Positions 2,712 through 34,265 are shown, counted from the first letter of the stretch. The stretch: 64,000 nucleotides of DNA from Promethearchaeota archaeon (GCA_019058295.1 JAHPZI010000022.1:1-64000), one strand, 5' to 3'. Numbers and translations: made by a program. The notes: generated by a model from the letters alone, not told the origin.

Positions 2712-3401
2712 TTATTTCCTATATCTTTTATGATTCCTAATGACCCTATTATTTTTCTTCATAATAACTTTCATCGCCTTTAAATATACTACAGTCGGTA
2801 TTATTTCTACATGTTGAATGAATTTTATTGAAATAGGTCTATCGCATCTAGAACAAAGTCTCGAATTTTTTAACCATCTCCTAAACTCATCAGCATGGGC
2901 TGGATGTCCACAGTGGGGACAAATAATGATACCTCTTTTCTCATCCGCAGGAAGTGTGGGCAATTGAAAGCAGAAAATACATTTGAAATCTTCTTGATTA
3001 AGGATAGTGCCCTTAGGTTTTAATCTAGTTAAACTATAAGTTTTTTTTCTCGATGCTGAGTTATTGGTATGAGTAGATCTATGAACTGGATTTGAACTTG
3101 TATGGGTATGATTTTGTGTTTTATGGTTAGTCCTTTGTATTGTCCTATTCGTAGTTCTTGGTGGAGATCTCACGGTAGTACGAGAAGATGTACGGTTTAC
3201 TGTTCTTGTTGGTGTACGCACCGTAGTACGAGAAGTGGTGCGATTTACTGTTCTATTAGGAGAGCGAGTAGTAGTGCGAGATGTAGTACGATTTATTGTT
3301 CTATTAGGAGAAAGTCTAATGGTGCGAGATTTAGTACGATTTGAATTTTTTGATTTTGAAAATAAAGAGGTCAGTTTAGAACGTCGTTTTCTTTTTGACA
3401 A
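2712..3401 (-). CDS. RING-like zinc-finger protein with Arg/Thr/Ser-rich repetitive N-terminus
   Basis: CxxC...CxxCxHxxH...W...CxxC (CIFC/CPHCGHPAH/WLKNSRLCSRC); directly downstream of a ubiquitin-like gene. Confidence 0.7.
   Translation of the reverse strand: MSKRKRRSKLTSLFSKSKNSNRTKSRTIRLSPNRTINRTTSRTTTRSPNRTVNRTTSRTTVRTPTRTVNRTSSRTTVRSPPRTTNRTIQRTNHKTQNHTHTSSNPVHRSTHTNNSASRKKTYSLTRLKPKGTILNQEDFKCIFCFQLPTLPADEKRGIIICPHCGHPAHADEFRRWLKNSRLCSRCDRPISIKFIQHVEIIPTVVYLKAMKVIMKKNNRVIRNHKRYRK
3129..3311 (-). repeat. intragenic 48-nt (16-aa) tandem repeat, about 3.8 copies
   Basis: SPNRTINRTTSRTTTR / SPNRTVNRTTSRTTVR / TPTRTVNRTSSRTTVR / SPPRTTNRTIQRT. Confidence 0.85.
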
Positions 3402-3491
3402 TTCTACACACCATCATTTTAATTTTGTTTAATATTATTTAATTAAAATAAAAAAAAAAAAGAAATTTGGGAAGGCATAAAGCCTTCTTAT

Positions 3492-3845
3492 TTATCCCGC
3501 GGTACTAGCAGGGATTAAGAGGACCTCGTCTCCATCGGATACACTATAATTGTCTAAGGGTGAACCTTCATCCATGGTTACCCCGCCTGAAGAAATGTGA
3601 AAATCAGCTGGATTTAATCCAAAAATATTTCCAACGGTTTGCTTGATATCTCCAACGGCATTGCCATCGTCAACGGTTAATTTCTGTTTTTTCTCGCCAG
3701 GACCAATAGTGGATGTGAAATAAAGCGTAATTTTTCTACCTCCCGCAGGAGATTTGTAAGCAGGTGTCTTAGAACGTGTTACTTGTTCTTCAATATTCTC
3801 TTCTAGATCCTCATCAAATTCGTCTTTAAAACTCATATTAATCAC
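3492..3845 (-). CDS. ubiquitin-like (beta-grasp) protein with acidic N-terminal extension, ending in Gly
   Basis: Ubl pattern (KLTVDDGNAVGDIKQTVG...LDNYSVSDGDEVLLIP), C-terminus ...STAG. Confidence 0.75.
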   Translation of the reverse strand: MINMSFKDEFDEDLEENIEEQVTRSKTPAYKSPAGGRKITLYFTSTIGPGEKKQKLTVDDGNAVGDIKQTVGNIFGLNPADFHISSGGVTMDEGSPLDNYSVSDGDEVLLIPASTAG

Positions 3846-4106
3846 TCCTTTTATTTTATTTTTTTTTATTTTGTTGTGTTAAACTTAATAGAAAGATACT
3901 GTTAGTATTATTTGAATGAATTAGGAATAAATGTGAAGAGTTTTTTTATTCTAAATAAGATAAATTGAAACAATCAAGGATTCTCAAATAACAATACTAT
4001 AAATTGAATAAAAGAATTAAATAATTTATAGCCCTTAATAATTTATCTTAGAGAGAAAAAAGTTTAATAAAAACTGGATAATTTAATGCACGTAAAGTAT
4101 TAGGAT

Positions 4107-4781
4107 ATGAGCATCTCGGAAAATGCAGAACATGTTGTTTTAGGGATAGTTAGAGAATATTTATCAAAAAAGCCTTATTTTTCAATGGGAGATATAGTTG
4201 AATTTGTAAATAACCGTGTAAGGAAAAACCCAGACATAAATAAGAACAAAATTGAATTAATCATTAAATCTTTGATAAAAAAAAGAGTTATTATTGCCGG
4301 AACTAAGTTGATGAAGAATGATATCATTGAAAATCCAACAAGGAATGAGATCCTTAATTATATAAGAAAAAATCCGGGAAAAAACATAAACGAAATAATG
4401 AGCCATCAAAAACTTGGAAGTAATTTAGCTTTGTGGCATTTATCTTGTTTAGAAAAGTTCCAATTCATTAGGTCTAAAAAAATGGGGAATCGAAGAATAT
4501 TCTTTAAATTTGATTCTAATCCTAAATTTGATGAAATACACTATTATATGAGAAATAAAGTTGTCCAAACTATTTTGAAATTTATGAAGAACGAAAATAG
4601 GGCGTTAAAGATCACAGATATAGCTGATGGTTTGAAAAAAAATCATAACACAATTAAAAAATACTTAGAAACTTTAACAAATCTGAATTTAGTAGAAATT
4701 GAAAAAGAAAAATCTAGAAAATTATACAAAATCAATCAGGAGAGGTTTTTAAAAGCAGTTAAATTGGTGCGTAGTGGTTGA
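4107..4781 (+). CDS. multi winged-helix transcriptional regulator (ArsR/HTH-like)
   Basis: R.EILNYI..NPG....I...LG...LWHL..LE plus a second wHTH (ITDIADGLKKNHNTIKKYLETL). Confidence 0.8.
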   Translation: MSISENAEHVVLGIVREYLSKKPYFSMGDIVEFVNNRVRKNPDINKNKIELIIKSLIKKRVIIAGTKLMKNDIIENPTRNEILNYIRKNPGKNINEIMSHQKLGSNLALWHLSCLEKFQFIRSKKMGNRRIFFKFDSNPKFDEIHYYMRNKVVQTILKFMKNENRALKITDIADGLKKNHNTIKKYLETLTNLNLVEIEKEKSRKLYKINQERFLKAVKLVRSG

Positions 4782-8226: not shown

Positions 8227-9059
8227 AGTATATGCGTGTAGAATTGTTAATAATAACAGCAAGTAAAGAGATTAAAGATGGAGAATTATGTATTATTGGT
8301 CAAGGAATCCCGTTCGCAGCAGGCGCATTAGCTAAACGAAAGCACGCGCCAAATGCCATAATTCTATGTGAAGCAGGAATGGTTGACCTTAATCTATTTC
8401 AAACTCTAGAAGATATATCAGATCCTGGTTCAAGTAAAGGATTTTCATATTCAATTGGTTTGTTTGATATTTTTACAACAATTGCTAATCGCGGTTATGC
8501 TGATGTATGTCTTTTAGGAGCCGCCCAAGTTGATAAATATGGAAACATAAATAGTACGGTTGTTGGGGATTATTATATAAGTAAGAGAAGCGATTTTAGA
8601 CTCTCAGGAGCTGGAGGAGCTCCCGAATTTTCAGGTCATTCTAATCGTACAGTTTTAACTTTGGTCGGCGGTCAGTTTGTAAATAAATTAGATTATATTA
8701 CTAGTCCAGGATGGTTAACGGGAGGTGAATCGAGGCGTAAGGCAGGTCTTCCAGGTGGACCTTCCGCATTAATTACTAAGTATGGTCTCTTCAGATTTGA
8801 TGAAAATTCAAAAGAGATGTATCTGGCAGGTCTATTTCCTCAAACTACTGTTGAAGATATTAGAGAACAAATCCCATGGGATTTAAAAGTTGCTGAAGAT
8901 TATGGAAAAACTTTAGAAAAAATACCATCTCCTAAAATTGAGGATTTAGAATTTTTAAGGGAATTTGATCCTTTTTTTGGAATTAGCGCTCATGAAGGAC
9001 GCAGATTACAAGCACAAGCATTGCCCGTTTTTTATGAACGTGGAGCCGCCAATGATTAA
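8223..9059 (+). CDS. family I CoA-transferase subunit B
   Basis: LGAAQVDKYGNINST, GAGGA, DYITSPG; stop/start overlap with subunit A. Confidence 0.9.
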   Translation: MKYMRVELLIITASKEIKDGELCIIGQGIPFAAGALAKRKHAPNAIILCEAGMVDLNLFQTLEDISDPGSSKGFSYSIGLFDIFTTIANRGYADVCLLGAAQVDKYGNINSTVVGDYYISKRSDFRLSGAGGAPEFSGHSNRTVLTLVGGQFVNKLDYITSPGWLTGGESRRKAGLPGGPSALITKYGLFRFDENSKEMYLAGLFPQTTVEDIREQIPWDLKVAEDYGKTLEKIPSPKIEDLEFLREFDPFFGISAHEGRRLQAQALPVFYERGAAND

Positions 9060-9079
9060 TTACAAGAAGATAAAAAAAA

Positions 9080-10261
9080 ATGAAGTATGAAGTAATTGTG
9101 TCAGGAGCAGGACCAGCAGGGTCAAAATGTGCTGAAGTTATATCAAGGGCGGGGTATAAGGTTGCACTAATTGAAAAAGATATAAATTTCCGAAAGCCAT
9201 GCGGGGGGGGATTACCTAGATCAAGTATCTACCGGTATTACCCGCAATTGAAAAAATTAAATTTAATCAAAAAAAATACATTGGCAATGTTTTCTGCTGA
9301 TGACCATAAACTCGAATATTCATATGAAGATTCTGAAGATAACCCAATTGTAATAGATAGGTTAGAATTTGATAATCTAATAAGAAATGTAGCTGTGGAT
9401 GCGGGAGCAGAGCTTTTTGATAAAAATGTATCATACAATTTCATATATAAAGATCGAAAAAGAGTTGGAATTAAAACAAGAACGCCCTCAGGCACCAAAA
9501 CATACTTAGCTAATATAATTATTGTAGCGGATGGGATGAGCTCAAAATTAGCTCACAAATCAGGATTGAGAGGGAAATGGAGACCTTTAGATATAGGTAT
9601 AGGTAAAGCACAAATATTAGAGGGCAAAAACAATTTAAATGGGAAGGGTACGTATTTTTTTTTTAAAAAGTATGGTTATAGTTGGATATTTCCTATAGAC
9701 AAACAAAAATTTAATCTTGGTTCAATTACTTATTATGAAAACAATTTAAAATATAATGTAAATGATTTATTTAATAATTTCCTTAAAGAATTACGGATTA
9801 AAAAATTAATATCTAATATAGATTATAAAATGATATGGTCAGCAATATTTCCCGAACCTGCCACGGGAGTTCTAGAAAAAAGTATGTTGGACGATAACTT
9901 AATTCTTGTTGGTGATGCAGCTGGATTTGTAGCTCCAATCAGTGGAGAAGGTATTCATGGTGCAATTGTTTCGGGACAAGTAGCAGGAGAAACTTCTATA
10001 AAAGCCATAGAAAGAGAAGATTTTTCGGCAGATTCTCTTAAGGAGTTCAAAAGGCATCCAAATATCAAAAAAATCATTAGATTGTTTAAATTTCAACGTA
10101 AATTTGTAAATTTCTTTTATGAAAATGAAGGTGAAAATCTCAATAAGATTTTTAAAATGGCGGAAAAAAATAAAGAATTTAAGGAGAATGTTATAAATAT
10201 TTTTATTTTCGGCCGAACACCTCCAAAAGATTTTATCTCAAAAATAAAAAGTACTCATTAA
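9080..10261 (+). CDS. geranylgeranyl reductase family FAD-dependent oxidoreductase
   Basis: GAGPAGS, KPCGGG, ADG, GYSWIFP, GDAAGFVAPISGEGI. Confidence 0.9.
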   Translation: MKYEVIVSGAGPAGSKCAEVISRAGYKVALIEKDINFRKPCGGGLPRSSIYRYYPQLKKLNLIKKNTLAMFSADDHKLEYSYEDSEDNPIVIDRLEFDNLIRNVAVDAGAELFDKNVSYNFIYKDRKRVGIKTRTPSGTKTYLANIIIVADGMSSKLAHKSGLRGKWRPLDIGIGKAQILEGKNNLNGKGTYFFFKKYGYSWIFPIDKQKFNLGSITYYENNLKYNVNDLFNNFLKELRIKKLISNIDYKMIWSAIFPEPATGVLEKSMLDDNLILVGDAAGFVAPISGEGIHGAIVSGQVAGETSIKAIEREDFSADSLKEFKRHPNIKKIIRLFKFQRKFVNFFYENEGENLNKIFKMAEKNKEFKENVINIFIFGRTPPKDFISKIKSTH

Positions 10262-10300
10262 AAAATATTAAATAGAAATAATTGAAAATAGTGGTGTGTT

Positions 10301-26362: not shown

Positions 26363-27019
26363 ATGGGAAAATTAGGTAAAAAACTGTTCCCCAGGAAAGG
26401 CGGAAGTCAAGATAAATTAATTACAACAGTAAAACGTTATACTCGACAATTAGGACTTCGAGCTAAAGCTCATCAGAAAAGAGCAGAAGTAGCCCGCCAA
26501 AACGCGAAAATAGCATTACAGAGAGGAGAAAAAGCACGTGCAAAAAATTATCTTATTCAATACAAAAACTATCAAATAAAAGTAGATAGAGCAACTAACA
26601 TAAGAGCTAAATTCGAAAGACAAATTGAAGCTATAGAAGAAGGTTCAGCAATCGCACAATCAGGAAATTTTATGGCTCAAATGCGTGATGAGCTAAAAAC
26701 AATAGCAACTAAGGCATCCCCCGTAAAAATTGCAGAAGTTGCTGAAGATTCTGAATTATATGTCTCCGAAATTGAGGAAGCAGGAGATATCCTCGCGGGA
26801 GATCCAGAAATAGATTTAGGTATTGATGTAACATCAGAATTAAACCAACTTGAAACCGAAATATTGCTTGATGCTAGCGGATCGATGCCAACGGTACCTA
26901 CTGGAGGAGAAATGCCCCAATATATTTCGGACGTCGATCTCGATTTCGAAGCTGAGGAAGCCACTTCAAAGGCTAAACTTGAGGAAGAGATAGAAAAATT
27001 GAGGAAGGAACTAGAATAA
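26363..27019 (+). CDS. Snf7/ESCRT-III family protein (Vps20/32/60-like)
   Basis: basic N-terminal helices (AKIALQRGEKARAKNYL), acidic C-terminal half, terminal LEEEIEKLRKELE helix. Confidence 0.8.
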   Translation: MGKLGKKLFPRKGGSQDKLITTVKRYTRQLGLRAKAHQKRAEVARQNAKIALQRGEKARAKNYLIQYKNYQIKVDRATNIRAKFERQIEAIEEGSAIAQSGNFMAQMRDELKTIATKASPVKIAEVAEDSELYVSEIEEAGDILAGDPEIDLGIDVTSELNQLETEILLDASGSMPTVPTGGEMPQYISDVDLDFEAEEATSKAKLEEEIEKLRKELE

Positions 27020-30155: not shown

Positions 30156-30302
30156 TTTAATTTTTAATCCTAACCTAAATTTAATGAGAATTTAGTTTTA
30201 ACAATAAAAGATATAATTTAGTTCAAAAATGAGTATGTTATTTGTGTATTATCTCTGAAATAAAAAAAAATAGATTTTTAAGTGGATTTTCTCTATTAAA
30301 TA

Positions 30303-30390
30303 CGCAAGGGGAGGGATTCGAACCCTCGAATGACATTATATCATTATCGGGATAGCAACCCGACGCACTCGACCACTATGCGACCCCTGC
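30303..30390 (-). tRNA. tRNA-Ser(GCT)
   Basis: anticodon arm TCGGG TTGCTAT CCCGA, long variable arm, G73. Confidence 0.93.
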
Positions 30391-30399
30391 TTATATAAG

Positions 30400-30487
30400 C
30401 GCGACGGGTAGGATTTGAACCTACGGTGGTGTTGAGCCACTCCCACTCTCAAGGCGGGCACAATCAACCGAGCTCTGTCACCGTCGC
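30400..30487 (-). tRNA. tRNA-Ser(TGA)
   Basis: CCCGC CTTGAGA GTGGG, long variable arm, G73. Confidence 0.93.
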
Positions 30488-30499
30488 TTTTTTTATGAA

Positions 30500-30583
30500 T
30501 ACGGGAATGCGGATTTGAACCGCAGAACCTCCTTTGAGGAGTGAAGTTTGAATTCACTGCCTTTACCACTCAGCCATTCCCGC
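30500..30583 (-). tRNA. tRNA-Leu(CAA)
   Basis: GTGAA TTCAAAC TTCAC, long variable arm, A73. Confidence 0.92.
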
Positions 30584-30588
30584 TTTTT

Positions 30589-30672
30589 TACAGGGAGAGG
30601 GACTCGAACCCTCGTAGTTCCTGCGAACCCTGAATCCTAAATCCAGTACCTTTGCCGCTTGGTTATCCCTGC
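30589..30672 (-). tRNA. tRNA-Leu(TAG)
   Basis: CTGGA TTTAGGA TTCAG, long variable arm, A73. Confidence 0.92.
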
Positions 30673-30681
30673 TTAATAGAA

Positions 30682-30767
30682 TACAAGGGGAGGGATTTGA
30701 ACCCTCGTACTCCCTGTGGAGAATAGATCTTAAGTCTATCGCTTTTACCTTTCTTAGCTACCCTTGC
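30682..30767 (-). tRNA. tRNA-Leu(TAA)
   Basis: ATAGA CTTAAGA TCTAT, long variable arm, A73. Confidence 0.93.
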
Positions 30768-30777
30768 TTACTTAAAA

Positions 30778-30850
30778 TGGGCTGGAGGGGACTTGAACCC
30801 CCGACCTCCGAGTTAAAAGCCCGTTGCGCTACCTGCTACGCTACCAGCCC
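30778..30850 (-). tRNA. tRNA-Lys(TTT)
   Basis: GGGCTGG/CCAGCCC acceptor; loop CTTTTAA. Confidence 0.93.
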
Positions 30851-30858
30851 ATTTTTGA

Positions 30859-30934
30859 TAGGAGTGGAGAGGATTGAACTCTCGACCACTGCGTTATAAG
30901 CACAGGGCTCTACCAATAACTAAGCTACACTCCT
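30859..30934 (-). tRNA. tRNA-Ile(TAT)
   Basis: CTGTG CTTATAA CGCAG; acceptor AGGAGTG/CACTCCT-A identical to the Ile(GAT) gene in the same array. Confidence 0.9.
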
Positions 30935-30939
30935 ATTGA

Positions 30940-31012
30940 TACACCCGGTAGGATTCGAACCTACATCCCCTCGCTTCGAAGGCGAGTATCCTCTCCATTG
31001 GACTACGGGTGT
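30940..31012 (-). tRNA. tRNA-Arg(TCG)
   Basis: CTCGC CTTCGAA GCGAG; A20 in D loop. Confidence 0.93.
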
Positions 31013-31018
31013 GAAGTT

Positions 31019-31095
31019 TGGTACGGGCGTGTGGATTTGAACCACAATCCATGACTTATGAGACCATAATTCTTACCAGATTAAACTACGCCCGT
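31019..31095 (-). tRNA. tRNA-Met(CAT), probably elongator; CCA encoded
   Basis: ATGGT CTCATAA GTCAT; lacks the three G-C pairs of initiator anticodon stems. Confidence 0.85.
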
Positions 31096-31103
31096 ATATA
31101 TAG

Positions 31104-31177
31104 TGGGGTTGGAAGGATTTGAACCCTCAACCTTTGATTTTGGAGACCACTGCTCTAAACCGCTAAGCTACAACCCC
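31104..31177 (-). tRNA. tRNA-Trp(CCA), intronless
   Basis: loop CTCCAAA; GGGGTTG/CAACCCC-A. Confidence 0.9.
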
Positions 31178-31185
31178 ATATTTAA

Positions 31186-31258
31186 TGAGGGTGGTAGGAT
31201 TCGAACCTACGACCTTTAGATTAGAAGTCTAACACCTTATCCGCTAGGCTACACCCTC
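31186..31258 (-). tRNA. tRNA-Arg(TCT)
   Basis: TTAGA CTTCTAA TCTAA; A20. Confidence 0.93.
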
Positions 31259-31266
31259 ATAATTAA

Positions 31267-31341
31267 TAGGAGAGATCGGATTTGAACCGATGCAGTCTTC
31301 CTCGTAAGGGAAGATCCATAACCAGGCTAGGAGACTCTCCC
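31267..31341 (-). tRNA. tRNA-Val(TAC)
   Basis: CTTCC CTTACGA GGAAG. Confidence 0.88.
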
Positions 31342-31348
31342 AAGATAA

Positions 31349-31422
31349 GGGGCATAGAGGGAATTGAACCCTCGATCCTACGATTAAGAGTCGCATGCTT
31401 TCCCTAACTAAGCCATATGCCC
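31349..31422 (-). tRNA. tRNA-Lys(CTT)
   Basis: TGCGA CTCTTAA TCGTA. Confidence 0.92.
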
Positions 31423-31437
31423 ATAGATGTGCCAATA

Positions 31438-31516
31438 TGGTAGGAGTGGAGAGATTTGAACTCTCGAACCTATAGTTTATCAGACTATCGCTCATTCCAG
31501 GCTGAGCTACACTCCT
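31438..31516 (-). tRNA. tRNA-Ile(GAT); CCA encoded
   Basis: ATAGT CTGATAA ACTAT. Confidence 0.93.
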
Positions 31517-31553
31517 ATTATTAGAAATTGAATTTGATATCTGATAACAAGAG

Positions 31554-31625
31554 TGGGATCAGAGTGACTTGAACACTCGCCCCAAGATCTTCATTCTTGT
31601 GCTCTCCCAGTTGAGCTATGATCCC
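31554..31625 (-). tRNA. tRNA-Phe(GAA)
   Basis: CAAGA ATGAAGA TCTTG. Confidence 0.9.
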
Positions 31626-31687
31626 TAAAATCTCCTCTGATTTTTTGAAGTCCACCTTTGGTCATTCTTAAATGACAATTTTTTCAT
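31625..31687 (-). CDS. putative 20-aa micro-ORF MKKLSFKNDQRWTSKNQRRF inside the left tRNA operon
   Basis: ATG at 31687; TAG overlaps G1 of tRNA-Phe; GAGGTGA 16 nt upstream. Confidence 0.35.
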   Translation of the reverse strand: MKKLSFKNDQRWTSKNQRRF

Positions 31688-31725
31688 TTTTTTTTTTATT
31701 TTTTCACCTCATTTTTTTTATTTTA

Positions 31726-31798
31726 CGCCCCTAGTAGGGTTCGAACCTACACCGCCCGATTAACAGTCGGAGATGCTACCTATTAACACTATAGAGGC
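31726..31798 (-). tRNA. tRNA-Asn(GTT)
   Basis: TCCGA CTGTTAA TCGGG; G73. Confidence 0.93.
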
Positions 31799-31917
31799 AT
31801 GTTTGAAGTTGTTGAATTAAGATAAAAGAAAAAGTATAATGCAAAAGCTAAGAGCTATGAGAATATCTTGGAAGTACAAAAGATAAATAAGTGGATTGTC
31901 AGATTTAAGTAAAGAAT

Positions 31918-32004
31918 TTACTGAATCAAACTGGAGGAGAGAAGATTATTGACGAGATTCACTCGCCACCTTTTCGATCTTAACTTAAATCTAAGTGAGG
32001 CCAT
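31918..32004 (-). CDS. putative leader peptide of left tRNA operon, MASLRFKLRSKRWRVNLVNNLLSSSLIQ (28 aa)
   Basis: ATG 25 nt downstream of a TTTAAATA box; 26/28 residues are amino acids of the downstream tRNAs. Confidence 0.7.
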   Translation of the reverse strand: MASLRFKLRSKRWRVNLVNNLLSSSLIQ

Positions 32005-32029
32005 AATACTATCATTATTATTAATTAAG

Positions 32030-32044
32030 TATTTAAATGTTTTG
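32030..32044 (-). promoter_or_regulatory. BRE/TATA promoter for left tRNA operon
   Basis: minus strand CAAAACA-TTTAAATA, box at 32037-32030. Confidence 0.65.
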
Positions 32045-32068
32045 TTTAAATGGCTAAAACGATTAAAA

Positions 32069-32115
32069 TGGGAAAGAAATGGGTAAGATAGTGAATGTGG
32101 GAAAAGAATGGGTAA
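32069..32115. repeat. 18-bp direct repeat between the divergent promoters
   Basis: TGGGAAAGAAATGGGTAA (32069-86) and TGGGAAAAGAATGGGTAA (32098-115). Confidence 0.75.
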
Positions 32116-32122
32116 TTTTGAA

Positions 32123-32137
32123 CGAAATATTTAAATA
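32123..32137 (+). promoter_or_regulatory. BRE/TATA promoter for right tRNA operon
   Basis: CGAAATA-TTTAAATA, box at 32130-32137. Confidence 0.65.
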
Positions 32138-32162
32138 TTTAATTTGTGATATTATAAATACA

Positions 32163-32252
32163 ATGAGACGTGCAAAAGTGGCAACAACCACCTACCAGGA
32201 TATAGGCGCCCCCGAGCAGGGGCAATATGATAGCGAATGCTATCACCAATAA
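32163..32252 (+). CDS. putative leader peptide of right tRNA operon, MRRAKVATTTYQDIGAPEQGQYDSECYHQ (29 aa)
   Basis: ATG 25 nt downstream of TTTAAATA; 22/29 residues are amino acids of the downstream tRNAs and all ten are present. Confidence 0.7.
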   Translation: MRRAKVATTTYQDIGAPEQGQYDSECYHQ

Positions 32253-32390
32253 AAAATTTTACCCGTCTCTATTGATTTCCTTATTCTTTCCTTAGTTTTC
32301 CTAACCTTGATCGCCGTTTTCTATATACTTTAAAATCCATTTATCACGTTACTTATTTTTTCAGAAAACGGGTAAAAGCTTCATAATGAA

Positions 32391-32463
32391 GGACTGTGTA
32401 GTGTAATGGCATGCATTGAAGTTTGTGAATCTTCAGGAGGTGGTTCGATTCCGCCCACAGTCC
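32391..32463 (+). tRNA. tRNA-His(GTG)
   Basis: encoded G-1:C73, loop TTGTGAA. Confidence 0.88.
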
Positions 32464-32497
32464 TTCTTTCATAAATATAACGCATAGAAAATAAAAA

Positions 32498-32571
32498 GGG
32501 GCTGTAATATCAATCGGAAGATACTTGGTGTTGCATACCAAGGGTTGTAGGTTCAAGTCCTACCAGCTCCA
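32498..32571 (+). tRNA. tRNA-Ala(TGC)
   Basis: G3.U70, loop GTTGCAT, A73. Confidence 0.9.
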
Positions 32572-32578
32572 TAAAAAT

Positions 32579-32651
32579 ACTCCCGTAGTGTAGAGGACAA
32601 GCACTCCAAGCCTTGGACTTGGTAACGTCGGTTCGAATCCGTCCGGGAGTA
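32579..32651 (+). tRNA. tRNA-Gln(TTG)
   Basis: A1-U72; CCAAG CCTTGGA CTTGG (C33). Confidence 0.85.
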
Positions 32652-32668
32652 GTAATTTCATTGGAATT

Positions 32669-32742
32669 CTTGCTGTAGCTCAGACAGGTAGAGCAGGGGA
32701 CTGTAGATCCTTGGAGCGGAGGTTCAAATCCTCCCAGCAAGA
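32669..32742 (+). tRNA. tRNA-Tyr(GTA), intronless
   Basis: C1-G72, short variable loop, GGGGA CTGTAGA TCCTT. Confidence 0.93.
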
Positions 32743-32751
32743 CTAAGAAGC

Positions 32752-32826
32752 GGGGCACTAGTATAGTGGCTAGTATTCGCGACCGTCTATCGTGAGAAGG
32801 GGGATCGATACCCCCGTGCTCCGCCA
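32752..32826 (+). tRNA. tRNA-Asp(GTC), atypical; CCA encoded
   Basis: CGCGA CCGTCTA TCGTG, G73; carries G3.U70, C33, U37, A54. Confidence 0.82.
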
Positions 32827-32847
32827 AAAAGCATTGGAAATAATCGT

Positions 32848-32922
32848 GCGGGATTCATCTAGCGGTCAGGATCATCGCCTTCCAAGTGATTCACGGGTGT
32901 TCAAATCGCCCATCCCGCACCA
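32848..32922 (+). tRNA. tRNA-Gly(TCC); CCA encoded
   Basis: GCG/CGC-A acceptor end; ATCGC CTTCCAA GTGAT. Confidence 0.92.
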
Positions 32923-32927
32923 ATAAA

Positions 32928-33005
32928 GGCACTGTGGCCAAGTTTGGACAAGGCAGCTTCCTTGTAAGTAGCCGAGCGGGGGTTCGAATCCTCCCAGTGC
33001 CTCCA
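32928..33005 (+). tRNA. tRNA-Thr(TGT); CCA encoded
   Basis: loop CTTGTAA; GGCACTG/CAGTGCC-U. Confidence 0.85.
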
Positions 33006-33014
33006 GTAAAATAG

Positions 33015-33090
33015 GCATGCGTGGCTGAAAAGTTGAGGCGGGAGACTGCAGATCTCCTCTATGCAGGTGCAAGTCCTGCCGCGTGCTCCA
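33015..33090 (+). tRNA. tRNA-Cys(GCA); CCA encoded
   Basis: GGAGA CTGCAGA TCTCC; U73; T loop TGCAAGT. Confidence 0.9.
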
Positions 33091-33095
33091 ATCAA

Positions 33096-33170
33096 GCCCC
33101 TGTCATCTAGTAAGGTCAAGGATCCATGATTCTCAATCATGAAACGCAGATTCAAATTCTGCCAGGGGTA
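33096..33170 (+). tRNA. tRNA-Glu(CTC)
   Basis: CATGA TTCTCAA TCATG. Confidence 0.9.
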
Positions 33171-33175
33171 TAAAT

Positions 33176-33250
33176 GCTTCCATGGTGTAGCTAGGTCAAG
33201 CATCGTAGGTTTTCACCCTGCGGACTCGGGTTCGAATCCCGATGGAAGCA
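33176..33250 (+). tRNA. tRNA-Glu(TTC)
   Basis: GTAGG TTTTCAC CCTGC. Confidence 0.93.
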
Positions 33251-33260
33251 CTCATTAAAT

Positions 33261-33334
33261 GGGAGGGTAATCTAGCATGGAAGGATCCTCGCTTTGGAAG
33301 CGAGATGTCGGGAGTTCAAATCTCCTCTCTCCCA
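33261..33334 (+). tRNA. tRNA-Pro(TGG)
   Basis: GGG/CCC-A acceptor end; CTCGC TTTGGAA GCGAG. Confidence 0.9.
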
Positions 33335-33341
33335 TTTTAAT

Positions 33342-34265
33342 TTAAACAAAAGCATCTAAACATGTTTGATTTTTAACTACTTGAATCCTCTTATTTGCGA
33401 GTTCAATGTATTCCTTTGAGATTTCATATCCTACATAATGTCGTTTTAGTTTTAAGGCAGCAATTGCAGTTGTACCTGAACCTATAAAAGGATCTAATAT
33501 TACATCTCCCTCAAAGGAATAAATCTCAATTAAACGACGAGGCAATTCTTCTGGAAATGGAGCAGGATGCCCTATTTTTTTGGCTGAATCTGCTGGAAAA
33601 TTCCAAATAGATTTTGACCATTCAACGAAATCTTCCTTTTTTATCGTATTTACTTTGTTTCCTTTTTCAAGTCTATTTGAAAGTTTTGAGAATACTAATA
33701 TATACTCGTGTATATCTCTGAGACAAGGATTACTTGCCGAAGCGAAAGATCCCCAAGCGGTTGAAACACCGGCTGATGCTCCCTTATTCCAAATGATTTC
33801 GCCGCGCATATGAAAACCAATTTGATGCATTATTTCAATAATATATGCGTGTAATGGAATGTATGGTTTCCGCCCAACATTTGCAATATTTATTGCAGCT
33901 CTACCTCCAGGTACTAAAACTCTCCAAGTTTCTTTAAGAACATCTTCAAGTAATTTTAAATATTCAACAAGAGTCAAATTATCATCATAATCTTTTCCAA
34001 CGCCATAAGGAGGACTGGTTATCATTAGATGTACTGAATTATCAGGTAATAAGTCTATTTTGCGACTATCTCCTTGAATTATCTGATCTAAAGCTTTTTT
34101 TGGAATTTTATCTGAATTATCAACGTATTTAACTTTTTGTAGTTTGTTTAAACCTTTATATAAATTTGAATTATAAAAGAGAGATGAATCGTGGTTTTCC
34201 CGTTTTGAAACTCCAAAAGAACTAGTTTTTGTACCTTTTTTTGGAGTTTCCTTTTTATTTACCAT
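33342..34265 (-). CDS. site-specific DNA methyltransferase, beta class (N4-C/N6-A)
   Basis: TSPPY before HPAPFP and DPFIGSGTT. Confidence 0.92.
   Translation of the reverse strand: MVNKKETPKKGTKTSSFGVSKRENHDSSLFYNSNLYKGLNKLQKVKYVDNSDKIPKKALDQIIQGDSRKIDLLPDNSVHLMITSPPYGVGKDYDDNLTLVEYLKLLEDVLKETWRVLVPGGRAAINIANVGRKPYIPLHAYIIEIMHQIGFHMRGEIIWNKGASAGVSTAWGSFASASNPCLRDIHEYILVFSKLSNRLEKGNKVNTIKKEDFVEWSKSIWNFPADSAKKIGHPAPFPEELPRRLIEIYSFEGDVILDPFIGSGTTAIAALKLKRHYVGYEISKEYIELANKRIQVVKNQTCLDAFV

Follow-up and report, generated by a model that had tools for sequence, protein, structure and literature searches.

A probable demand-sensing back-up tRNA set in a Promethearchaeota archaeon: two divergent tRNA operons behind codon-matched leader open reading frames

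Introduction

The regulation of individual tRNA genes by cells is largely unknown. A dense tRNA array in which each of two operons is preceded by a small open reading frame (ORF) raises the question of whether the supply of tRNAs can be sensed at the tRNA genes themselves. Such an array lies in a stretch of 64,000 nucleotides from a Promethearchaeota (Asgard) archaeon (GCA_019058295.1 JAHPZI010000022.1:1-64000). This stretch, hereafter the window, forms the start of a 281-kb contig in a metagenome-assembled genome (MAG) of 3.2 Mb with 31% GC and 79% completeness (G000, the source genome). In the present analysis, the array and the spacer between its operons were examined together with related arrays, approximately 20 in all (9 genomes and 11 metagenome contigs), whose isoacceptors were aligned one by one. 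On this comparison, the array is probably a back-up tRNA set that responds to demand, its two divergent operons being gated by leader peptides whose codons match the tRNAs encoded downstream.

A sequence-only reading of the window had described 27 divergent tRNA genes, 16 on the minus and 11 on the plus strand, with no anticodon repeated, no amino acid shared between the operons and only U34 tRNAs for the four-codon boxes. ARAGORN returned exactly this set at 30303-33335, and Rfam agreed for 26 of the 27 genes, which scored above the gathering threshold of RF00005, tRNA-Asp (32752-32826) being the sole miss. The operons and their leader ORFs are as follows.

30303..31799, minus strand: left operon, 16 tRNA genes (ARAGORN, Rfam, cloverleaf covariation), transcribed in the order Asn, Phe, Ile-GAT, Lys-CTT, Val, Arg-TCT, Trp, Met, Arg-TCG, Ile-TAT, Lys-TTT, Leu-TAA, Leu-TAG, Leu-CAA, Ser-TGA, Ser-GCT
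32391..33335, plus strand: right operon, 11 tRNA genes (ARAGORN, Rfam, cloverleaf covariation), transcribed in the order His, Ala, Gln, Tyr, Asp, Gly, Thr, Cys, Glu-CTC, Glu-TTC, Pro
31918..32004, minus strand: left leader ORF, 28 codons (ORF listing, statistics, orthologues)
32163..32252, plus strand: right leader ORF, 29 codons (ORF listing, statistics, orthologues)

The left operon thus serves N, F, I, K, V, R, W, M, L and S and the right operon H, A, Q, Y, D, G, T, C, E and P, so that all 20 amino acids are covered, each by unique anticodons and with zero overlap between the operons.

Leader ORFs matched to their own operons

The inter-operon spacer of 590 bp was aligned from six arrays and contained two conserved blocks, each of which is a small ORF. 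In the case of the left leader, 25 of the 27 residues after Met belong to the ten amino acids of the left operon, and the codons sample 15 of the 16 left-operon isoacceptors, with Ile-TAT as the sole gap (null, 0.5%). The right leader has 22 of 28 post-Met residues in the right-operon set, includes ten of the ten amino acids of that set and samples 11 of 11 isoacceptors (null, 0.03%). Against proteome composition, the binomial P of the in-set enrichment was 7e-5 and 1e-4 for the two window leaders and reached 3e-8 in orthologues. Small ORFs across the genome (n = 5727) contained the full right set of ten amino acids in 0.07% of cases, reached the right-set fraction of the right leader in 0.017% and were as depleted of right-set residues as the left leader in 0.8%. 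Multiple testing is negligible because the spacer has just five ATG ORFs of at least 20 codons. Upstream of the right leader, an in-frame ATG at 32079 overlaps the promoter, and the extension is interrupted by stops in most orthologues.

Orthologues of the leaders were found in every array with enough upstream sequence. All 36 unique leaders have the leader frame open, and the two alternative frames are closed in 35 and 36 of them. Leader lengths vary by whole codons, and the differences between leaders are spread nearly uniformly over the three codon positions and are mostly non-synonymous. Accordingly, the peptide sequence is not conserved, just the open frame, the length and the composition. 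Conservation of composition rather than sequence is what would be expected of a regulatory leader. The orthologous leaders usually sample 90-100% of the isoacceptors of their operons. Leader codons ending in G or C are approximately twice as frequent as expected, and these are rare codons in the source genome; RNA structure may also drive their use. The Asn-type leader of L043, that is, the leader before an operon headed by tRNA-Asn, has a GTG start and an odd promoter spacing. The leader pattern also matched bacterial genomes and 50-59% GC soil contigs; these sequences lack tRNA arrays, and the matches are attributed to chance.

The arrangement of the Leu and Ser tRNAs differs among arrays. 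In G057, G060, G012 and L031, a separate block of five Leu/Ser tRNAs has its own leader of 21-25 codons, which carries approximately 14 Leu/Ser residues and codons for five of the five block tRNAs; its end lies 116-148 nt upstream of the first tRNA. The Asn-type leader of split-block arrays (G057, G060/L035, G024 and L031) contains no Ser and 0-1 Leu, whereas it contains 7-13 Leu plus Ser where the Leu/Ser tRNAs stay in the operon. The leader match therefore appears to follow operon content, and the split arrays are the strongest test of this. The split with its common leader type probably represents one or two evolutionary events, which are highly specific.

Promoters, T runs and RNA pairings around the leaders

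Two divergent promoters lie in the spacer, and each is followed by its small ORF 25 nt past the TATA box. The elements of the spacer and of the left operon end, other than the ORFs, are listed below.

32030..32037, minus strand: left TATA box, TTTAAATA, ending 25 nt before the leader ATG
32130..32137, plus strand: right TATA box, preceded by CGAAA resembling a B recognition element (BRE), ending 25 nt before the leader ATG
32069..32115, no strand assigned: G-rich motif in two copies (TGGGAAA..TGGG.AA) between the promoters, from the six-array alignment
31977..32004, minus strand: left region 1 (codons 1-9), pairs with left region 2
31891..31916, minus strand: left region 2, starting 2 nt past the stop
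31829..31833, minus strand: T5 run in the pyrimidine-rich spacer before tRNA-Asn
30262..30270, minus strand: T9 run, likely the left operon terminator, approximately 35 nt past the last tRNA
32164..32180, plus strand: right region 1 (first codons, core GAGACG), pairs with region 2
32255..32270, plus strand: right region 2 (core ACCCGTCTC), starting 3 nt past the stop, pairs with region 1 or region 4
32356..32361, plus strand: T6 run between the right leader and tRNA-His, candidate regulated archaeal terminator
32362..32378, plus strand: right region 4, complementary to region 2, ending 12 nt before tRNA-His

The BRE/TATA element (TTTAAATA or TTTATATA) ends 22-26 nt before the start codon in each of the three leader types (Asn-type, His-type and that of the Leu/Ser block), a spacing typical of leaderless mRNAs in archaea. 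Of 14 unique Asn-type leaders, 13 have the left-type TATA box at -30 to -33. As the left TATA box ends 25 nt before the leader ATG, the mRNA is predicted to be leaderless or nearly so. The dispersed tRNAs of the host have a TATA box 25-40 nt upstream and no leader. A second promoter near the first tRNA was considered and may exist, although TATA-like motifs, present in many spacers, have unconserved positions, and several spacers have none. The G-rich motif is kept in other arrays, in either orientation.

A stem encloses each ORF. The left 1:2 pairing had an energy of -17.2 kcal/mol compared with -6.1 kcal/mol for shuffles, and when left region 2 was tested in duplexes, the cognate value was -16.4 kcal/mol and the non-cognate value -10.7 kcal/mol. 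The same test on the His-type 1:2 pairing was uninformative, as both arms are nearly invariant. The 1:2 pairing is present in all three unrelated leader types, with region 2 beginning 1-13 nt after the stop. The alternative 2:4 duplex was found in 18 of 18 unique His-type leaders at -13 to -25 kcal/mol, with region 4 ending 7-26 nt before tRNA-His; it was stronger than shuffles in all eight leaders tested, and its flanking changes are compensatory. Among Asn-type leaders, the 2:4 alternative is strong in approximately half. T runs of at least five (T5-T10) occur in 27 of 36 unique spacers, and archaeal termination requires oligo-T only. A local 3:4 hairpin, considered as a terminator, was seen by eye in G000 and G003; it is unconserved and is not claimed. 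A search of the spacer with Rfam at permissive thresholds gave nothing credible, and the idea that the folded element at 32163-32270 is an odd tRNA or small RNA was dropped given the ORF and its composition.

An accessory set of functional tRNAs

The tRNA order and the divergent layout are kept across the approximately 20 arrays. Because this ordered layout recurs in 8 other genomes and 11 metagenome contigs, the array is not a chance cluster. Alignments of the array tRNAs had mean identities of 60-84%, with stem positions paired in 94-100%, and compensatory changes altering both sides were found in 342 of 561 stem pairs. Accordingly, the array tRNAs are under purifying selection and appear to be functional. 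The Lys, Glu and Arg-TCT tRNAs of the array share 80-89% identity with dispersed Asgard tRNAs, which argues that the array genes are native in origin.

The array is an accessory tRNA set and not a housekeeping set. A genome-wide search showed that the array does not hold the only tRNAs of the source genome; approximately 13-17 further tRNAs, many of them intron-bearing, lie outside it. These include duplicates of array anticodons (Gly-TCC, Ser-TGA, Lys-CTT, Pro-TGG and Thr-TGT) as well as G34/C34 anticodons missing from the array (Val-CAC, Arg-GCG, Gly-CCC, Leu-CAG, Thr-GGT and Pro-GGG). Rfam matched 15-27 tRNAs in array-less relatives of 98-100% completeness and 47-49 in array-bearing relatives of 99-100% completeness, approximately 25 of the latter being in the array, so that dispersed matches are equally numerous with and without it. 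The low dispersed count is a detection limit, since complete array-less relatives are equally low and intron-bearing tRNAs are under-detected. The array is thus supernumerary to a housekeeping set. A housekeeping tRNA operon would occur in all relatives and be the sole source of its isoacceptors, neither of which holds for the array.

When the 161 genomes of the class were surveyed, 9 carried the array; all 9 belong to one family, in three genera (4/10, 4/4 and 1/6). At the syntenic site of G004, the two flanks are approximately 650 bp apart with no tRNA between them, and the corresponding site of G001 holds a different 3-kb filler. Together with the duplicated anticodons and the equal dispersed counts, the empty G004 site upholds the accessory nature that the sequence-only reading had proposed. 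The contigs of G007 (95% identical; C158 and C119) and of G005 end precisely at the array. Some absences are therefore assembly gaps, and the presence of the array is probably under-counted in MAGs. With regard to horizontal spread, the occurrence is patchy, the flanks differ among genomes (G003, G009, G024 and G012) and the G004 site is empty, yet the array is found in a single family, and the contig breaks blur the absences. No integrase, capsid, other viral gene or mobility gene was found in any array flank examined, and the leader pattern had no match in IMG/VR. The array thus lacks the viral neighbours or IMG/VR contigs of a viral tRNA cluster, and its flanks are of host type, with typical Asgard genes for LRR, WD40, Arf/Roc GTPases and Snf7.

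Proposed mechanism and rival explanations

Each operon would begin with a leaderless small ORF that polls the isoacceptors encoded downstream, with co-transcription of ORF and tRNAs and translation of the ORF both assumed. The first codons of the ORF would pair with a segment just past its stop, and this segment could pair alternatively with one just 5' of the first tRNA, T runs lying between. When a polled tRNA is limiting, the ribosome would stall in the leader, the RNA would refold, and transcription or maturation would proceed into the tRNA genes. By analogy with enterobacterial attenuators, from which the direction of the switch is taken, stalling would free region 2, while smooth translation to the stop would mask it, and fast decoding would hold the operon low. 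Candidates for the controlled step are oligo-T termination, factor-dependent termination and processing of the 5' leader. The physiological trigger would presumably be tRNA damage, starvation or translational stress. The codon-matched leaders and the proposed RNA switch lend indirect support to a role in translational stress, which the sequence-only reading had suggested. A further proposal, given roughly even chances, is that the array is an autonomous module in which a multivalent leader peptide polls in cis all the isoacceptors of its own operon, so that depletion of any single one would switch on the whole block.

Several features expected of an attenuator are present. A conserved short ORF, open in 36 of 36 leaders, lies 5' of the tRNA genes with its stop 112-181 nt before the first of them; it is enriched in cognate codons, and the match co-varies with operon content; and region 2 is common to the 1:2 and 2:4 pairings, which makes these mutually exclusive, with 2:4 weak in some Asn-type leaders. 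We infer that a ribosome-mediated switch of the attenuation type is the most economical reading of these sequences.

Other observations weigh against this reading. Asn-type leaders from G000 (the source genome), G005 and the g4 genus show weak 2:4 pairing. No conserved terminator consisting of a hairpin plus U-tract was found among the 36 unique spacers, the positions of the T runs are variable, and 9 of the 36 spacers have no T run. The His-type leaders of G003, G009 and G057 are weakly enriched (P of 0.08-0.26), a few His-type leaders lack one cognate amino acid, and no leader, K/F-rich or other, was evident before the Lys-CTT/Phe mini-operon of G057. The G-rich motif between the promoters suggests a candidate site for a protein regulator, which would act additionally or instead. 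Moreover, we know of no experimental demonstration of ribosome-mediated attenuation in archaea.

The G-rich motif leads to the alternative of a constitutive supplement in gene dosage, in which extra U34/G34 tRNAs would serve an AT-rich genome, the ORFs would be independent small-protein genes or promoter-proximal, non-sensing sequence, and any regulator would bind DNA at the motif. The conservation of this repeat between the promoters, the control of the Anabaena L-array by a repressor (TrcR) rather than a leader peptide and the lack of a conserved canonical terminator hairpin all fit such a supplement. However, it leaves unexplained why the composition and codons of each ORF match its own operon, why the match tracks the split Leu/Ser block, and why a stem encloses the ORF in three unrelated leader types, and it is considered unlikely. 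That the 27 genes are instead the housekeeping set, or a decaying pseudogene cluster, is hardly credible. The small number of other tRNAs detected in a 79%-complete genome and the non-canonical structure of several array tRNAs, such as tRNA-Asp with C33/U37, could be cited for it, but dispersed counts are equally low in the complete array-less relatives, the array is missing from most relatives, compensatory evolution maintains every cloverleaf, and the odd Asp loop is itself conserved.

A different origin is proposed if the array is the cargo or remnant of a mobile element or virus, countering tRNA-cleaving systems, with the leaders as a viral invention. The patchy distribution, varied flanks and empty site would agree with this, as would the LAGLIDADG endonuclease and DNA methylase by the G009 array, the methylase 6 nt from tRNA-Pro in the source genome, and the 3' CCA encoded in 6 of the 27 array genes (Met, Ile-GAT, Asp, Gly, Thr and Cys) compared with none of the dispersed tRNA genes examined. 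The host-type flanks free of integrase, capsid or viral genes, the missing IMG/VR match and the native origin argued by the Lys, Glu and Arg-TCT tRNAs speak against it, and such an origin is judged quite improbable. It concerns where the array came from and is compatible with the sensing mechanism. The demand-sensing back-up set remains the preferred reading.

Comparison with known systems and significance

Tran et al. 2016 (PMC4758250) define a tRNA array unit as 20 or more tRNA genes with a density of 2 or more per kb; the present array has 27 in 3033 bp, or 8.9 per kb. Arrays of tRNA genes are known from bacteria, phages and two euryarchaeal classes (Halobacteria and Methanobacteria; PMC6333295). 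Among archaea, Morgado and Vicente 2019 (PMC6333295) described redundant tRNA clusters, that of Haloarcula vallismortis spanning 20 isotypes; they found no Asgard clusters and reported no leader ORFs. Unlike the halobacterial and methanobacterial clusters, the present array has an order that is fixed across genera. The compact, near-complete sets of phages and mycobacterial plasmids are thought to secure translation under attack (PMC5966550, PMC6409571, PMC12803027). Unlike these, the present array has no viral context or IMG/VR match, and its tRNAs are of Asgard type.

The bacterial L-arrays are supernumerary, spread by horizontal transfer, normally silent and induced by translational stress (Santamaria-Gomez et al. 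2021). In Anabaena sp. PCC 7120, translational stress induces the array of the trn operon through the TrcR repressor (PMC8421152, PMC10272220). The present array resembles that L-array in its density, in its patchy distribution and in supplementing a housekeeping set with more than 20 tRNA genes. The Anabaena array is silent until translation is impaired. The present array differs in being archaeal and chromosomal, in dividing the 20 amino acids between two divergent operons with none in common, in its minimal, non-redundant anticodon set, and in the proposed cis control by leader ORFs instead of a repressor.

The enterobacterial attenuators of amino-acid operons (ilvGMEDA, thr, his and trp) have a leader peptide that polls 1-3 amino acids. 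They share with the present operons a short 5' ORF with codons linked to the product, followed by mutually exclusive pairings and T/U runs. In contrast, the targets here are tRNAs and not biosynthetic enzymes, 10 amino acids and up to 16 isoacceptors would be polled by one leader, the mRNA is predicted to be leaderless behind an archaeal promoter, no hairpin plus U-tract is conserved, and the pairing topology is 1:2 versus 2:4.

The decoding scheme has its closest parallel in the superwobble sets of mitochondria, plastids and Mollicutes, in which each four-codon box is read by a single U34 tRNA, NNY codons by G34 and NNR codons by U34/C34. Likewise, all eight four-codon boxes are served in the array by U34 alone (TGA, TAG, TAC, TGC, TCC, TGT, TGG and TCG), G34 is used in NNY boxes and U34 in NNR boxes, plus C34 for Leu, Lys and Glu, and Met-CAT and Trp-CCA complete the set. 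Unlike those minimal sets, the array adds to a fuller dispersed set with G34 and C34 species and is not a product of genome reduction.

A full-text literature search found no paper tying leader peptides to tRNA operons, and the authors of the Anabaena study call their own results first indications of tRNA gene regulation. If the proposed mechanism is true, a cis sensor would measure tRNA supply through the ribosome and feed back on tRNA genes, which would be a new regulatory principle. Ribosome-mediated attenuation would then extend to tRNA genes and operate in archaea, so that leader-peptide control would exist in the domain whose translation apparatus is nearest to the eukaryotic one. Asgard archaea would be expected to face insults that repeatedly strike particular tRNAs, for example anticodon nucleases or starvation. 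Furthermore, a free-living organism would treat a 27-tRNA, U34-only set as sufficient, which would bear on superwobble and on the design of minimal codes. The system is compact, comprising a control region of approximately 600 bp and 3 kb of tRNAs.

Further features of the array and its surroundings

None of the 27 array genes has an intron, and the gaps within the array are mostly 5-15 nt. The gap between tRNA-Asn and tRNA-Phe (31626-31724) is unusually long at 99 nt and A-rich on the transcribed strand; it ranges from 8 to approximately 100 nt among arrays. The G-1 of tRNA-His is encoded in the right operon gene. The encoded CCA ends are only partly kept among orthologous arrays. The sole CAT tRNA (31019-31095) is initiator-like in that every array keeps A1:U72 and A73 unchanged, whereas positions 2-7 covary; its anticodon stem has two G:C pairs only, not three, and A1:U72 is also found in Ile tRNAs. 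The tRNA-Asp(GTC) that Rfam missed has a non-canonical anticodon loop, CCGTCTA (C33, U37), and an odd T-loop in the source genome; the CCGTCTA loop is kept in the arrays of L036, L031, L050 and G012, and G003-type arrays have a normal loop.

A tRNA-Ile with a UAU anticodon (30857-30935) is present in nearly all arrays, and its conservation means that AUA would be read without a CAU tRNA requiring agmatidine. The ATA codon is present in the right leader and not in the left. In the case of L050 (Ga0180433_10008873), the array has extra A34 tRNAs, Ala-AGC and Thr-AGT (6008 and 6636), beside the U34 ones, and the leader does not sample them by strict pairing. In L041 (Ga0114922_10049903), upstream of tRNA-Phe at 983, the T-loop region of tRNA-Asn carries an insertion of approximately 30 nt, and ARAGORN misses the gene. 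This insertion may be a non-canonical intron gained by an array gene.

Among the flanking genes of the window, that for the N6/N4 DNA methylase (33342-34265) ends 6 nt from tRNA-Pro. It was rejected as a part of the system, since a 79%-identical orthologue occurs in G006 without an array. The flanking 655-residue protein, which belongs to no Pfam family, was rejected likewise because it is also found in array-less relatives. A methylase 33% identical to that of the window lies 2.5 kb from the G009 array (L011, G009:C14). Nuclease genes at 8245-9120 and 2865-4364 beside that array encode the LAGLIDADG endonuclease, directly 3' of the last tRNA, and a beta-CASP/RMMBL RNase. A gene for an NYN-domain protein (9193-10278) adjoins the G003 array (L010, G003:C308). 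In the window, a gene of the Snf7/ESCRT-III family, an Asgard host marker, lies at 26363-27019, 3 kb from the array.

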